From positions 43,834,001 to 43,898,000 of the forward strand of contig JAGIQG010000002.1 in the NCBI GenBank assembly GCA_024679065.1: DNA of 64,000 nucleotides, written 5' to 3'. Of the stretch, positions 35,001 to 64,000 are shown in pieces; within the stretch, counting starts at the first letter, position 1, and every line of letters starts with the position of its first letter. This DNA comes from Sphyrna mokarran (lineage: Eukaryota). Both the position numbers and the translations under genes were made by a program. The notes beneath the pieces are model-generated. The model was not told the DNA's origin and made no database searches. It worked only from the letters and a program-made list of their open reading frames with translations.

Positions 35001-38000
35001 AAAGAAAACAGATGAAGAGAACTGAAGCAGGTGAAGATGGCGTGTAAATATTTACTAATGTATTAAGGGGGGGTTCAAATATTAGGAAAAAGGCAACCCC
35101 CAGAATACTTGGAAAAATCTGCTGACATCAGCGCAAATACATTATGACAAACCTCTGGGCCAATTACCTTATTGGTGTACTTGAATTTAATTAAGTATTT
35201 GTTTTGATATTCCTCTCTATAGCATCAGAGATAAGTAATTAACCAGGCAATACTAAAAACATAAGAAGCAACATGTTTTGAAAGGCTCATGCGCTTCCTT
35301 ATATGGCCTTGAAATGTATTCAGTCTATAGCAAATTTGGAAGCCATATTGTAAAGCAAATGAGATGGGAAGGGACATTCCTGGATCTCCAGGCCATATTT
35401 TCTCAGTCTATTCAAACAGCATGGTTCCTGATATTCTGGCCAACATCAAACAAATCCCTGAGGAATGGATCATTTATTTCAATGTTGTTTGAGATGCTTG
35501 CTAAGTGAAAATTGGCTGCAAGATTTCCTATATTGCAGCACTAACTGCACTTTGAAAGTGCATTATTGGCTGTGGAACATTTTGGGATATTTTGAGGTTG
35601 TAAAAGGTGATTTTTTTTAATGACCAAGAGGTGCCACTTTCACTGGTGTTCAGAAAGTTGCCCTTAAACTTTACATTGGGATGTTTACCACAATAGATAA
35701 GAGCGGTGAACAGGACTTAGAAACAAGACAACAAGGACAGTATTTTGGACTTTTCATGGGACTGAGGGAAAGTCAAGGCCTGGATCCTTCTGATTGCTAT
35801 GTCTAATTGGGTAATGAAGTATTTAAGAACCAATTTGTAAGCCCATTCTACATGTTGATCATTTCCAATATTTTTTATTCATTAGTTTTGAGCCTATGAC
35901 ACCCACCTTCTCTTGCAATTTTATTTATTTTTTCAGGTTTACCTCTTCCTTACTGCCGACTATTTTATGTACATTATGTTATGCAGAAATGTCAAGATTG
36001 GCACTCAGCCGCATGCTTTCAAGGCTGAAATTTCCAAGTTTCTCCACCTTTCACAGATCCTTCTGTTCCTCAACACTATTAAGAGCCCTACCATTAGCCC
36101 TATACTCTACACATTTATTGTTCCTGCCAAAGTGCATTACCTCACACTTTTCCACATTAAACTCCATTTGCCACCTCTCGGCCCAGCTCTGCAACTTGTC
36201 CAAGTCACTCTGTAAACTAAAACACCCCTCTTCACTATCTACCACACCACCAACTTTAGTATCATCTGCAAATTTACTGATCCATCCCTCAATACCCTCA
36301 TCCAGATCATTTATAAAAATTACAAACAGCAGGGGCCCCAAAACAGACCCCTGAGGCACACCACTCGTCACCGAACTCCACGATGAATATCTCCCATCAA
36401 CCACCACCCTCTGTCTTCTATCTGCCAGCCAATTCCTAATCCAATTAGCTAAATCACCCTCTATTCCACACATCTGCATTTTCTGTAGAAGTCTTCCATG
36501 GGCCACCTTATCAAAAGCCTTACTAAAGTCCATATATACTACATCAACCGCCTTACCCCCATCCACCTCTCTGGTCACTTTCTCAAAAAACTCAATGAGG
36601 TTAGTAAGGCATGACCTACCCTTCACGAAACCATGCTGACTATCCCCAATCAATTCATTTCTCTCTAAATAACTATAAATCCTATCCCTAATAATTCTCT
36701 CCAATACCTTGCCCACCACAGAAGTAAGACTCACTGGCCTATAATTCCCAGGAAGGTCTCTCTTCCCCTTCTTAAACAATGGGACCACATTCGCCATCCT
36801 CCAGTCCTCCGGAACCACACCCGTAACCAACGAGGACCTGAAGATCAGAGCCAGAGGCTCTGCAATCTCCTCTCTTGCCTCCCAGAGAATCCTAGGGTAA
36901 ATCCCGTCCGGCCCAGGGGACTTATCCAACTTCAAACCCTCGAGAATTTCTAACACATCCTCCCTATCTACTACAATACTCCCCAATTTGCAACCCTGTA
37001 CCTCAGTGCTCTCCACAGCTACATTTCCAGCACTCTGCGTGAATACCGAAGAGAAATATTTATTATTTATTTATTTATCCCGAAAAGAGGCAGTCAAGTG
37101 GATAAAGTTGTTAAGAAGGCTTATGGAGTCTTAGCTTTTATTGGTAGGGGGATTGAATTTAGGAGCCGCAGAATCATGTTGCAGCTGTACAAAACTCTAG
37201 TGCGGCCGCACTTGGAGTATTGTGTGCAGTTCTGGTCGCCACATTATAAGAAAGATGTGGAGGCATTGGAGAGGGTACAGAGGAGGTTTACTAGGATGTT
37301 GCCTGGTATGGAGGGCAGGTCCTATGAAGAGAGGTTGAAGGATTTGAGGTTGTTTTCGTTAGAAAGGAGGCGGCTAAGGGGGATCTTATTGAAACATATA
37401 AGATGATTAGAGGTTTGGATAGGGTGGACAGTGATAGCCTTTTTCCTAGGATGGAAAAAGCTAGCACGAGGGGACACAACTTTAAATTAAGGGGTATGAG
37501 TTATAGGACGGATATCAGAGGTAGGTTCTTTACTCAAAGAGTGATTAGGGAGTGGAATGCCCTGCCTGCAGCTGTTGTAGATGCGCCAAGTTTGGTGGCG
37601 TTTAAGAGGTTAGTTGATAAGTATATGGATGAGAAGGGAATGGTTTAGTTAGGAGGGGCATTGCTTTTTATTTTGGTCGGCACAACATCGAAGGCCGAAG
37701 GGCCTGTTCTGTGCTGTATTGTTCTATGTTCTATGTTTCACCACAGGCAATGATTCTTGTAGCTAGACAGTGCTTGAAGTTCTTCCCTTTGTCTTACCAT
37801 GATCAAAACCGTAGCATTCTCAAGTTGGCAACTGAGCAGAGCACTATAAAATTTGATCATAACTGTTTTTCCTTTATAATTCTGTTGGAATTGGTGATTT
37901 TGGCTCTCTGTTATTTAAAATGATTGAAGATCAAATCTATTAAGACTTCTTAGCCTTTCTTTAAAAATATTTCCTTTGCTTTTTCAATGTTATCCATGTA

Positions 38001-58427: not shown

Positions 58428-59319
58428 CTACAAAATAAAGAACTTGGTTAACACAGCAGTTTTGTTTACAACTTTCACTTTAATTCTTTAATTTTTCATG
58501 TCAGGGTAAGTACCTACATTCCATTTTAATTCATTGTGTGAACATTTTTAGATATCTTGATGTTATAAGATACTTAGAGCTGTACATTTCTACACTCAAT
58601 AATTAAGGGAGTGATCCTCTGGCCCTGTGCCTTCATGCACCAATCATGCTAGGGCAGAGAATCGTTGGCGAGGAATTATAGTGTATTTGCACTGATGAGA
58701 GCCATTTTTGGGATTCTCCCCATCCACACACTTGAACACAATCTGGTTTATGCCAATGGCTGTGAACCAAGAAACAATATTTTCCATTGTGTACTAATAC
58801 ATGTGACAGTAAATCAAATCAAATACTGGATCAATATATTTAACTAACATTTAAACATGCAAGGTCAGTTTGGAGCCAGATTCTCCCAGCTCCTACCATC
58901 CTCAAACCCTCAGACACAGAGGGAACCTGGCATGAATCACTACTGGTCTTCACAAATGGAAACCAGTTGTGATGGCTGGCAAGGCAGTTGAGATGGGGGG
59001 AGGAGGGGTGAGGGGCGTAGTTTGGAGGCTATTGAAGCCCCAGGGTGGTTAAGGAAATGGTTAACCAGAATGCTAATCTGATAGTCTCATAGCAGGGTTG
59101 CTCATTTGCTGGGGAATACCAGTGAATCATGAGGATATGGCTGATACAAGGGAACAGAGGTGATGTTAGCCAGTGAGTAGGAGGGTAGTGTGTATAGGGT
59201 TGTATGAAGATAGGGGCACCTTTAAAAATGTCTTGCTGGTATCTTTAGGTCCCCAATCCAAAAAAACATTCGAAGTGTGATGAATTGCAAATTGAATTTG
59301 TATGTCATCACTGTTTACA

Positions 59320-60697
59320 GGTATAGTGCCAGAAGACTGGAGGATAGCAAATATTGTACCCTTGTTCAAGAAGGGGAGTAGAGACCATCCTGGAAATTAT
59401 AGATTAGTTAGCCTTACTTCTGTTGTGGGCAAAGTTTTGGAAAGGATTATAAGAGATAGGATTTATAATCATCTAGAGACAAATAATTTGATTAGGGATA
59501 GTCAACACAGTTTTGTGAAGGGTAGGTCATGCCTCACAAACCTTATTGAGTTCTTTGAGAAGGCGACCAAAGAGGTTGATATGGCTAAAGCAGTTGATGT
59601 GGTATATATGGATTTCAGTAAAGCATATGACAAGGTTCCCCATGGTAAACCACTGCAGAAAATACGGATGCATGGGATTGAAGGTGATTTATCAGTTTGG
59701 ATCAAGAATTGGCTAGCTGAAAGAAGGAAATCTTCAACCTGGAGTCAGTTACTAGTGATGTACTGCAGGGATCTGTTTTGGGGCCACTGCTGTTTGTTAT
59801 TTTTATAAATGACCTAGATGAGGGTGTAGAAGGATGAGTTAGTAAATTTGTGGATGACACTAAAGTCGGAGGAGTTGTAGACTCCTATGGATGTTACAGT
59901 TTGCGGATGGATGTTACAGTTTGCAGAGAGACATAGATAAGTTGCAGAGCTGGGCTGAGAGGTGGCAAATGGAATTTAATATGGAAAAGTATGAGGTGAT
60001 TCACTTTGGGAGGAGTAACAAGATTACAGAATTTTGGGCTAATGGAAGACTCTTGATAGTGTGGATGAGCAGAGAGATCTAGATGTACATAGATCCCTGA
60101 AAGTTGGCACCTCAGTTGATAGTGTTATTAGGAAAGTGTATGGTGTGTTAACTTTTATTGGTAGAGGGATTGAGTTTCGGAGCCGTGAGATCATGTTGCA
60201 GCTGTGCAAAACTCCGGTGTGGCTGCACTTGAAGTACTGTGTATAGTCCTGGTCATCGCATTATAAGAAGGATGTGGAAGCTTTGGAAAGAGTGCAGAGG
60301 AGATTTACCAGGATGTTGCCTGGTATGGTGGGAAGGTCTTATGAGGAAAGGCTAAGGGACTTGAGGTTATTTTCATTAGAGAGAAGAGGGTTAAGAGGTG
60401 ACTTAATTGAGGCATACAAGATGATCAGAGGATTAGATAGAGTGAACAATGAGAGCCTTTTTCCACAGATGGTGATGGTTAACACGAGGGGACATAGCTT
60501 TAAATTGAGGGGTGGTAAATATAGGATGGATATCAGAGGTAACTTCTTTACTCAGAGTAGTAAGGATGTGGAATGCCCTGCCTGCAGCAGTAGTGGACTT
60601 GCCAACTTTAAGAGTATTCACATGGTCATTGGATAGACATATGGATAATACTGGAAATAGTTTAGGTTAGAGGGTCATTAGATTGATTCCACCAGTC
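59320..60697 (+). mobile_element. Older CR1 copy whose terminal ~55 nt is displaced to 63879-63935
   Basis: PEDWRIANIVPLFKKG.. with frameshifts; the 3' UTR breaks at CCACCAGT and resumes CGGCGCAACATCG..GTTCTATG. Confidence 0.85.
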
Positions 60698-60783
60698 ATA
60701 GAACATAGAACATTACAGCACAGAACAGGCCCTTCGGCCTTCAATGTTGCGCCGACCAATATAAAAAGCAATGCCCCTCCAAA

Positions 60784-63690
60784 CTAAACCATTCCCTTCT
60801 CTTCCATATACTTATCAACTAACCTCTTAAACGCCACCAAACTTGGCGCATCTACAACTGCTGCAGGCAGGGCATTCCACTCCCGAACCACCCTTTGGGT
60901 AAAGAACCTACCTCTGATATCCGTCCTATAACTATCACCCCTTAATTTAAAGCTGTGTCCCCTCGTGCTAGCTTTCTCCATCCTAGGAAAAAGGCTATCA
61001 CTGTCCACCCTATCTAAACCTCTAATCATCTTATATGTTTCGATTAGGTCCCCTCTTAGCCGCCTCCTTTCTAACAAAAACAACATCAAATCCCTCAGCC
61101 TCTCTTCATAAGACCTGCCCTCCATACCAGGCAACATCCTGGTAAACCTCCTCTGTACCCTCTCCAATGCCTCCACATCTTTCTTATAATGTGGGGACCA
61201 GAACTGCACACAATACTCCAAGTGCGGCCGCACTAGAGTTTTGTACAGTTGCAACATGACGTTGCGGCTCCGAAATTCAATCCCCCTACCAATAAAAGCT
61301 AAGACTCCATATGCCTTCTTAACAACCTTCTCGACTTGACTGCCTACTTTCAGGGATCTATGCACATACACACCAAGATCCCTCTGTTCATCAAGACTAC
61401 TAAGAATCCTACCATTAGCCCTATACTCTACACATTTATTATTTCTGCCATAGTGCATTACCTCACACTTTTCCACATTAAACTCCATTTGCCACCTCTC
61501 GGCCCAGCTCTGCAACTTGTCCAAGTCCCTCTGCAAACTATAACACCCCTCTTCACTATCTACCACTCCACCGACTTTAGTGTCATCTGCAAATTTACTA
61601 ATCCATCCTTCAATACCCTCATCCAGATCATTTATAAAAATTACAAACAGCAGGGGCCCCAAAACAGACCCCTGAGGTACACCACTTGTCACCGAACTCC
61701 ACGATGAATATCTCCCATCAACCACCACCCTCTGTCTTCTATCTGCTAGCCAATTCCTAATCCAATTAGCTAAATCACCCTCTATCCCATACATCTGCAT
61801 TTTCTGCAGAAGTCTTCCATGGGCCACCTTATCAAACGCCTTACTAAAGTCCATATATACCACATCAACCGCCTTACCCCCATCCACCTCTTTAGTCACT
61901 TTTTCAAAAAACTCAATGAGGTTAGTAAGGCACGACCTACCCTTCACAAATCCATGCTGACTATCTCCAATCAATTCATTACTCTCTAAATAACTATAAA
62001 TCCTATCCCTAATTATTCTCTCCAATACTTTGCCCACAACAGAAGTAAGACTCACTGGCCTATAATTCCCTGGAAGGTCTCTCTTCCCCTTCTTGAACAA
62101 TGGGACCACATTCGCTATCCTCCAGTCCTCCGGAACCACACCCGTAACCAACGAGGACTTGAAGATCAGAGCCATAGGCTCTGCAATCTCCTCTCTTGCC
62201 TCCCAGAGAATCCTAGGGTAAATCCCGTCCGGCCCAGGGGACCTATCCAACTTCAAACCCTCAAGAATATCTAGCACATCCTCCCTATCTACTTCAATAC
62301 TTTCCAGTTTGCAACCCTGTACCTCAGTGTTCTCCATAACTACATTTACATCACCCTGCGTGAATACCGAAGAGAAATATTTATTCAGTACCTCTCCAAT
62401 CTCTTCAGGCTCCACGCACAACTTCCCACTGCTGTCTATGACTGGCCCTAATCTTGCCCTAACCAATCTTCTATTCTTAACATATCTAAAGAAAGCTTTA
62501 GGATTCTCCTTAATCCTATCAGCCAAAGTCTTCTCGTGTCCTCTCTTAGCTGTCCTCAATTCACTCTTTAGCTCCCTCCTGGCTAATCTATAGCTATCCA
62601 TTGCACTAACCGAGCCTTCAAGCCTCATCCTGACATAAGCCTCCTTTTTCCTTTTAACCAGCAAATCAACTTTTTTCGTACACCAAGGTTCTCTTACTCG
62701 ACCATTTCCTCCTTGCCTGACAGGGACATACTTATCAAGGACTCGCAGCAGCTGCTCCTTGAATAAGCTCCACATTCCAGATGTTCCCAGTCCCTGTAGT
62801 TTCCTAGTCCAATCTATGCACCCTAATTCTCTCCTGATGGCCTCATAATTACCCTTCCCCCAGCTATAACTACTGCCCCCAGCTTCATGCCTATCCCTAT
62901 CCATCACTAAGGTGAACGTAACCGAATTGTGGTCACTATCACCAAAATGTTCACTAACTTCCAAGCCTAACACCTGGTCTGGCTCATTGCCCAGCACCAA
63001 ATCCAATGTAGCCTCACCTCTAGTTGGCCTATCTACATACTGAGTCAAAAAACCTTCCTGCACACTTTGTACGAAAACTGACCCCTCTAACGAGCTAGAG
63101 CTATAGCTATTCCAATCAATATTAGTAAAGTTAAAGTCCCCCATAACAATTACCCTATTACTTTCACTCCTGACCAGAATTGACTTTGCAATCCTTTCCT
63201 CTACCTCTCTAGAACTTTTAGGAGGTCTATAAAAGACTCCCAACAGGGTGACCTCTCCTCTCCTGTTTCTAATCTCAGCCCATACTACCTCAACAGACAA
63301 GTCCTCATCAAACTTCTTTTCTGTCACTGTGATACAGTCTTTGACTAATAATGCCACTCCTCCCCCCCTTCTACCTCCTTCTCTACTCCGACTAAAGCAT
63401 TTGAACCCCGGAACCTGCAACATCCATTCTTGTCCCTGCTCTACCCAAGTCTCTGAAATGGCCACAACATCGAAGTTCCAGGTACTGGTCCAAGCTGCAA
63501 GTTCCTCCCCCTTATTGCGAATACTCCTTGCATTAAAGTATACGCATTTCAAACCATGCCCTACCCCACCCGTATGCTGCTGTGTTTTACAGCTTTCCTC
63601 TATGACCCCCTTACTCTCATCCCTCTTAGCACCCCAACTACTTAGGATCCCACCCCCCCCCCGAATCAGTTTAAAGCCCCCTGCATAGCC
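60784..63690 (-). CDS. CR1 ORF2 (APE endonuclease plus RT); frame open from 63690
   Basis: [34 protein letters not shown]; no stops; I read the frame as open upstream of the TTG at 63552 up to TAA at 63693-63691. Confidence 0.93.
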   Translation of the reverse strand, partial: GYAGGFKLIRGGGGILSSWGAKRDESKGVIEESCKTQQHTGGVGHGLKCVYFNARSIRNKGEELAAWTSTWNFDVVAISETWVEQGQEWMLQVPGFKCFSRSREGGRRGGGVALLVKDCITVTEKKFDEDLSVEVVWAEIRNRRGEVTLLGVFYRPPKSSREVEERIAKSILVRSESNRVIVMGDFNFTNIDWNSYSSSSLEGSVFVQSVQEGFLTQYVDRPTRGEATLDLVLGNEPDQVLGLEVSEHFGDSDHNSVTFTLVMDRDRHEAGGSSYSWGKGNYEAIRRELGCIDWTRKLQGLGTSGMWSLFKEQLLRVLDKYVPVRQGGNGRVREPWCTKKVDLLVKRKKEAYVRMRLEGSVSAMDSYRLARRELKSELRTAKRGHEKTLADRIKENPKAFFRYVKNRRLVRARLGPVIDSSGKLCVEPEEIGEVLNKYFSSVFTQGDVNVVMENTEVQGCKLESIEVDREDVLDILEGLKLDRSPGPDGIYPRILWEAREEIAEPMALIFKSSLVTGVVPEDWRIANVVPLFKKGKRDLPGNYRPVSLTSVVGKVLERIIRDRIYSYLESNELIGDSQHGFVKGRSCLTNLIEFFEKVTKEVDGGKAVDVVYMDFSKAFDKVAHGRLLQKMQMYGIEGDLANWIRNWLADRRQRVVVDGRYSSWSSVTSGVPQGSVLGPLLFVIFINDLDEGIEGWISKFADDTKVGGVVDSEEGCYSLQRDLDKLQSWAERWQMEFNVEKCEVMHYGRNNKCVEYRANGRILSSLDEQRDLGVYVHRSLKVGSQVEKVVKKAYGVLAFIGRGIEFRSRNVMLQLYKTLVRPHLEYCVQFWSPHYKKDVEALERVQRRFTRMLPGMEGRSYEERLRDLMLFLLERRRLRGDLIETYKMIRGLDRVDSDSLFPRMEKASTRGHSFKLRGDSYRTDIRGRFFTQRVVREWNALPAAVVDAPSLVAFKRLVDKYMEEKGMV

Positions 63691-63878
63691 TTAGCAAATT
63701 TTCCCCCCAAGATATTAGTTCCCCTCTGGTTCAGGTGTAGACCATCTCTCTTGTAGAGGTCCCACCTATCCCAGAATGAGTCCCAATTGTTCAGGAACCT
63801 GAACCCCTCCCTCCTGCACCATCCCCGCAGCCACGAGTTCAAACATTCCCTCTCTCTATTCTTCTCTAAACTATCCCT
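63666..63878 (-). CDS. CR1 ORF1 C-terminal fragment (SGNH esterase-like)
   Basis: LNSWLRGWCRREGFRFL..LYKRDGLHLNQRG..ALN*. Confidence 0.85.
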   Translation of the reverse strand, partial: RDSLEKNRERECLNSWLRGWCRREGFRFLNNWDSFWDRWDLYKRDGLHLNQRGTNILGGKFAKAMQGALN

Positions 63879-64000
63879 CGGCGCAACATCGAGTGCCGAA
63901 GGGCCTGTACTGTGCTGTAACGTTCTATGTCTATGTCTTATGAATTGCAGCAAATCACCCAGCATGAATCCCACCGGTTTTCTGGCTGGAGATAAAACTT

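Follow-up and report, generated by a model that had tools for sequence, protein, structure and literature searches.

A conserved slippery heptamer at the ORF1/ORF2 junction of esterase-type CR1 elements points to probable programmed −1 frameshifting

How translation of the second open reading frame (ORF) begins in long interspersed elements (LINEs) has been called an open question (PMC3894237), and a copy of CR1, the dominant repeat of birds (PMC11835228), raises it in a particular form in the shark Sphyrna mokarran. The copy lies on the minus strand of a 64,000-nucleotide (nt) stretch, hereafter the window (assembly GCA_024679065.1, contig JAGIQG010000002.1, positions 43,834,001 to 43,898,000). 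Its ORF2 encodes an endonuclease and a reverse transcriptase (RT) in a frame that offers no usable AUG where ORF1 ends. In the current work, we describe what this junction carries in its place, namely a slippery heptamer that recurs in distant CR1 lineages, and we weigh the explanations for it; the junction is real and family-wide, and it is probably a programmed −1 frameshift site.

Read on the minus strand, ORF1 ends GCT TTA AAC TGA, and the heptamer TTTAAAC (63675-63669), the only one within the 3.2-3.8 kb element, is divided by the ORF1 codons in X_XXY_YYZ phase. The two frames overlap by 25 nt, and no stop interrupts the −1 frame between 63690 and 60784; Pfam profiles place Exo_endo_phos and RVT_1 in this frame and the C-terminus of a GDSL esterase in the upstream one. 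The first in-frame ATG (63423) follows both the NARS (63534) and ETW (63453) motifs of the endonuclease, and the six ATGs that precede it are each in a frame other than that of ORF2. The ETW glutamate aligns with the E of 'IQETH' in the L1 endonuclease, which we take to be the catalytic residue. Because the first in-frame ATG lies past these motifs, AUG initiation would truncate the enzyme, and no AUG stands at or near the ORF1 stop of the kind that termination-reinitiation in L1 or SART1 would need. The heptamer and its phase, the overlap, the open −1 frame and the place of the first in-frame ATG behind NARS and ETW, together with a run of ten G (G10) that begins six nt after the heptamer (63662-63653), had been described in a first-pass annotation of the window and were borne out by the minus-strand reading. 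In the mechanism that we favor, a ribosome arriving at the final two codons of ORF1, just ahead of the stop, would slip back one base on U_UUA_AAC and read on through a variable linker into the endonuclease and RT. The esterase-linker-endonuclease-RT fusion that would result, in small amounts, may be the working form of the ORF2 protein; help would come from the adjoining stop codon and from a short G motif lying 11-20 nt past the heptamer, rather than from G10 or a hairpin. We consider it likely, though well short of certain, that programmed −1 frameshifting operates at the ORF1/ORF2 junction of esterase-type CR1s.

Features of the CR1 copy and its surroundings in the window (positions are those of the window)
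Feature	Position	Strand	Remarks
Slippery heptamer T_TTA_AAC	63669..63675	-	X_XXY_YYZ phase; conserved in other lineages
ORF1 stop TGA	63666..63668	-	abuts heptamer; other lineages have TAG or TAA
ORF2 frame, APE endonuclease and RT, intact here	60784..63690	-	968 aa stop to stop
−1 linker, heptamer to endonuclease NARS motif	63535..63675	-	stop-free, Met-free
First in-frame ORF2 ATG	63421..63423	-	3' of NARS (63534) and ETW (63453)
G10 run	63653..63662	-	6 nt after heptamer; length 7-15 across copies
Positionally conserved G motif (G-run, 1-2 other bases, GGG)	63649..63658	-	11-20 nt after heptamer
ORF1 3' remnant, C-terminal part of SGNH/GDSL esterase, ends ...GALN*	63666..63885	-	match to full-length copy begins 63885
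Element 3' untranslated region (UTR) and short-repeat tail	60697..60783	-	
Displaced 3' tail of older CR1 copy	63878..63945	+	split by young copy's insertion

The junction recurs in lineages that were chosen for comparison without reference to the heptamer. A hidden Markov model of the esterase gave 150 matches, the best 30 of which represent a second CR1 family whose ORF1 ends TLN or SLN followed by TAG; the 27 readable copies comprise 26 with TTTAAAC and one with GTTAAAC, and ORF2 is in the −1 phase in 26/27. Thirty loci picked by an endonuclease motif include 23 with an ORF1 end, where TTTAAAC (18), GTTAAAC (4) and TTGAAAC (1) were found and ORF2 is in −1 in 14, in +1 in six and in 0 in three, the misses arising mostly from run length. 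Another 18 loci belong to older variant lineages, and the 12 with an ORF1 end have TTTAAAC (11) or TTTAAAG (1), with ORF2 in −1 in eight, in +1 in three and in 0 in one. Metagenome contigs contributed 37 loci; in eight of these the end of a CR1 ORF1 is present, with identity of about 30-35%, and all have TTTAAAC (8/8), while the four that extend to the endonuclease are each open in −1, the other 29 having been left uncounted as ending before the ORF1 end, too decayed, or distant esterase ORFs. These metagenome CR1s appear to be amniote-type, judging from likeness to turtle proteins.

The same arrangement is visible in 17 hand-picked representatives, counts over which overstate independence because the rows are related and form about three deep groups. 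Fifteen extend to the endonuclease and 14 of these are in −1, although in one of the 14 the final codon of the linker is a stop. Their linkers are of eight lengths (35, 39, 43, 44, 49, 50, 59 and 86 codons), the other frames hold 3-10 stops, and the rough chance of an open linker of 35-86 codons is 0.001-0.07 each. The codon before Leu varies (GCT, ACT, TCT, GGT, TGT, AGT) and has T as its third base throughout, and Leu is invariably TTA and Asn invariably AAC. In the window ORF2 these are minority choices (16/88 Leu and 6/30 Asn codons, respectively). At the protein level, ORF1 tails end LN in 43 of 47 complete sequences (from 67 matches in sharks, rays, turtles and an eel). Two stingray protein models read from ORF1 through FKL to NARS, and a search for longer relatives of ORF1 returned two proteins, one of them informative. 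Two other organisms have contigs that differ within the G-run and at the base preceding the heptamer, with no listed difference at 63663-63675. Scans of viral contigs found no relatives, and three short prokaryote matches from genome contigs were not used. Three individual loci have altered layouts: L239 (G000:C1104:27582000-27587000), a member of the second family, carries one additional G in the run that immediately precedes the heptamer, and its ORF1 and ORF2 form a single open frame of 1224 aa, a layout met in 1/150 esterase matches; L230 has a clean junction deletion that joins the heptamer almost directly, in frame, to the endonuclease motif; and L121 has lost the second half of ORF1 through a clean internal deletion.

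A natural variant of the heptamer has also multiplied in the shark genome. A search with the heptamer left free returned 3361 places, and the 100 listed were, counted by eye, 90 TTTAAAC and 10 GTTAAAC. GTTAAAC is present in 211 copies, with a 10-base run in 78/100; 23/28 fall within the youngest clade, at a median nearest-neighbour distance of 0.35%. On this evidence GTTAAAC is the one variant that spread, and it is a slippery site already known to function: GUUAAAC is the shift site of equine arteritis virus (PMC3835772 Table 1), and GUU is named as a tolerated form of XXX (PMC3542737). The T-to-G change is also synonymous in ORF1, so GTTAAAC fits frameshifting but is no proof of it. The frameshifting that the first-pass annotation had proposed gains from a heptamer, stop and phase that recur in lineages with unalignable linkers and from a variant that is itself a known site; the G-quadruplex part of that proposal is unsupported as it stood, and the copy at hand cannot itself make the fusion.

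Results on the linker, on run length and on downstream signals weigh against frameshifting. AUG-independent termination-reinitiation, in which the ribosome would restart one base back (a CUG-A overlap) or slightly downstream of the ORF1 stop and make a separate ORF2 protein, predicts an open −1 linker just as well. For SART1 termination-reinitiation has been reported, and L1 has been proposed to use it (PMC5972666). It could tolerate some change at the junction, and in the window's family a CTG does overlap the stop, with an A at −3 (63669). However, the overlapping codon is CTA throughout the TAG lineages, and CTA is not known to be usable as a start codon. Reinitiation also leaves unexplained why T_TTA_AAC is fixed at synonymous positions and why the GUU variant exists, and a G run of nine bases breaks a restart at the stop as well; we regard it as unlikely. 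The linker itself has an in-frame Met in 5/15 representatives, at positions that are not conserved, and three database ORF2 proteins begin at a linker Met. In the ORF1 proteins, E, Q, K, M and W are absent at residue −3 (43/43), but they are equally absent at −7 and −9, which makes this a weak test of a constraint to NNT.

The difficulty is greatest for the G run. A search of the 2.77 Gb genome with the junction flanks and a gap of 6-16 bases found 2008 places, only 884 of which have the window's 10-base run; gap lengths among the first 100 were 7 (2 copies), 8 (2), 9 (25), 10 (52), 11 (10), 12 (5), 13 (2) and 15 (2). The first 60 of these 100 copies were retrieved and aligned by projection onto real copies, and in a tree built from 58 rows, 38 form a young subfamily A (a 10-base run in 23 of them) and the other 20 form subfamily B, to which the window copy belongs (nine bases in nine rows, ten in three). 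Among pure runs with the B flank, nine is the mode (22/54) and ten is found in 13/54; −1 phase is kept in 17/54 and lost in 37/54. A 9-base run puts ORF2 in the +1 frame, and a −1 shift then meets a stop after 10 codons. A sister lineage with an interrupted run has 10 bases in 34/39 copies, and its in-phase share differs from that of the pure runs (34/39 vs 17/54, p 7e-8); from these comparisons, wherever the run is stable, the phase of ORF2 is −1. The first-pass annotation had named another ORF2 frame or an upstream ATG in the family consensus as findings that would speak against it, and both appear in part, as the +1 frame given by the subfamily B mode and as the Met codons in 5/15 linkers.

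Where the 9-base copies come from was approached in several ways. The 9-base state is not clustered in a 56-row tree (16 changes vs 16.5 when shuffled) and it shows no link to any of the 91 variants that copies share (the lowest p, uncorrected, is 0.009); a single 9-base source lineage was rejected on these two tests. The 10-base copies are not younger (p 0.86; the youngest bin holds three G9 and one G10), and decay of G10 with age was rejected on this ground as the cause of the excess. G10 as a family trait was rejected as well, being specific to two young subfamilies and absent from sister lineages and other organisms. Variants shared by >5 of 49 B copies are synonymous to other in the ratio 41:22, whereas the private ones stand at 156:452; the sources of B therefore made working ORF2 protein, or recombined with lineages that did, and on this measure they were under purifying selection on ORF2. 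The 9-base excess could reflect trans-mobilisation of 9-base transcripts, a bias toward contraction, slippage for a second time on the G run, or frame-independent initiation. It is mainly because this excess stays unexplained that our confidence in frameshifting is not higher.

The last of these possibilities would make ORF2 independent of the junction altogether, with initiation past the G-run at a near-cognate start or at lineage-specific linker AUGs; the heptamer would then be retained on account of the protein or of some other RNA function. Candidate near-cognate starts are TTG at 63552, just before KCVYFN, and ACG at 63573; the linker Met codons described above would serve the same end, and such initiation would directly explain the 9-base subfamily. 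It leaves unexplained, however, the open linkers of 35-86 codons upstream of such starts and the in-phase state of 34/39 and 26/27 copies with a stable run, and the lack of conservation in linker Met positions also stands against it. We judge frame-independent initiation to be very improbable.

Downstream signals bring a further proposal of the first-pass annotation into question, namely that an RNA G-quadruplex (G4) formed by G10-TGGG and later G tracts might drive the −1 slippage, which is a variant of frameshifting and not exclusive of it. Three-tier G4 RNA placed 6-8 nt after UUUAAAC stimulates −1 shifting up to about 7% in vitro, the effect being weaker with fewer tiers (PMC3919603). The window junction has a G4Hunter score of 1.88, and ViennaRNA predicts a two-tier G4 at the junction in 8/18 representatives, one of them further downstream. 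However, the sense strand of the window copy (60784-63885, minus strand) has a strong bias (33% G, 12% C), other peaks in the element equal or exceed that of the junction (1.96, 2.32), and in none of four elements scanned does the top peak fall at the junction. Four G3 tracts within 45 nt, the three-tier form, are found in only 5/18 representatives, and the predicted two-tier G4s are the weaker type (PMC3919603). G10 itself, being a local expansion, is missing outside the two young subfamilies, and the conserved part of the tract begins at +11, outside the 6-8 nt optimum. G4 stimulation is unsupported in the form proposed, and we hold it to be quite unlikely as the driver. Nor was another conserved stimulator found among folds: a hairpin 5-9 nt downstream was rejected on flat z-scores from folding that excluded pseudoknots (−1.3 to +1.0 in 17/18 representatives, the single outlier of −2.75 starting far downstream), and a conserved distant C-rich partner was rejected in that no long-range pairing partner is common to the eight elements compared.

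What is kept downstream in position is a short G motif. In a heptamer-anchored, ungapped comparison, G stands at +14 in 17/17 and at +11 and +20 in 14/17 of the hand-picked, related representatives, against a background of 23-40% G; all three are third codon positions, and GGG begins at +18 in most representatives. As a lead only, the motif at +11 to +20 may act as a stimulator or may instead reflect a need for a Gly-rich peptide. The comparison across copies and CR1 families that the first-pass annotation had called for accordingly upheld the heptamer and, mostly, the phase, while its G-tract proved only partly conserved.

Programmed −1 frameshifting of this kind has several parallels. Nidovirus −1 sites include UUUAAAC and, in equine arteritis virus, GUUAAAC, the same heptamer and variant as in CR1 (PMC3835772, PMC3542737), but nidovirus sites have a pseudoknot 3-7 nt downstream, whereas no conserved downstream fold was found at the CR1 junction. 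The −2/−1 shift in nsp2 of PRRSV, the virus of porcine reproductive and respiratory syndrome, uses no RNA structure and has a short conserved motif 11 nt downstream, a distance that matches that of the CR1 G motif (PMC7939443); the PRRSV motif is C-rich and bound by PCBP and nsp1-beta, whereas the CR1 motif is G-rich, and a −2 shift at the CR1 junction, unlike that in PRRSV, would meet UAA. Among APE-type non-LTR elements, ORF2 of TRE5-A and TRE3-A from Dictyostelium needs a −1 frameshift according to the legend of a review (PMC5911963), although these elements differ from CR1 in having an unrelated ORF1, in belonging to another clade and in their protist host. L1 and SART1 resemble CR1 in having a bicistronic LINE mRNA and low ORF2 output; a 63-nt spacer and an AUG are found in L1 and a UAAUG overlap in SART1, whereas the CR1 ORFs overlap on a slippery heptamer and the window's family has no AUG before the catalytic Glu. 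A literature search found no description of frameshifting for CR1, the 1997 chicken/turtle CR1 and Kapitonov-Jurka papers lying outside its cover. In the available text, the word 'frameshift' is absent from PMC4120745, and from PMC2734521 as a translation mechanism, neither giving an account of ORF2 translation, and PMC5009743 does not mention CR1.

The assignment of the element follows from its domains, its tail and its named homologs, by which it is an esterase-type vertebrate CR1 LINE. Its ORF2 combines APE endonuclease and RT domains, as in that class, and full-length copies have an ORF1 with an SGNH esterase and an N-terminal Cys motif, of which the window copy keeps the C-terminal part alone. 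The ORF1 and ORF2 layout is that of esterase-type CR1 (ORF1 type IVB, zf/lz plus esterase; CR1 subgroup 7, PMC4120745), and the short-repeat 3' tail and frequent 5' truncation are likewise as in that group. Named homologs of ORF1 are mostly from sharks and rays; two others, P0010 (filed under Pseudomonas aeruginosa, 60% identity) and P0051 (flatworm, 36%), are CR1 ORF1 homologs that are probably host DNA. In 6/6 full-length copies examined (L244, L083, L071, L056, L049 and L152), the 5' UTR has a pattern that resembles a splice acceptor about 70 nt before the ATG of ORF1, with a branch-point-like CTAAC, a pyrimidine tract and AG.

The window copy itself is 5'-truncated at about 63885, with ~70 ORF1 codons left; having lost most of ORF1, it cannot make the fusion, and it is a relic of a signal that belongs to the family. 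It was inserted, antisense, within the 3' tail of an older CR1 whose body lies at about 59304-60696 on the plus strand, and the short stretch 63878-63885 is common to the young copy and the older tail. The segment 63998-63886 was rejected as part of ORF1; 63878-63945 on the plus strand is the displaced tail of the older element. Elsewhere in the window, 36055-37064 (minus strand) and 37077-37733 (plus strand) constitute a very young subfamily A copy, at 99.9% and 98.4% to L050, and its two adjoining pieces point in opposite directions, the arrangement that a 5' inversion gives.

By analogy with the systems above, a bolder picture can be drawn, which we put forward as doubtful: CR1s from sharks to amniotes might make a Gag-Pol-like fusion of the esterase to the endonuclease and RT, triggered by no RNA fold but by a G motif that is kept at exactly 10 nt from the shift site for a protein to read. 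This would be a counterpart, in a retrotransposon, of protein-stimulated shifting in arteriviruses, and the spread of G_UUA_AAC might retune the ORF1:ORF2 ratio. The shark genome offers natural variants of the junction, with U or G as the first base and with runs of nine bases, ten bases or an interrupted sequence, and the conserved slippery site is a short, directly testable cassette. For annotation, frameshifting would mean that ORF2 lacks a separate N-terminus and that a copy is intact only when its junction is in phase. For the biology of the family, it predicts a fused protein that would tie the esterase to the RT.

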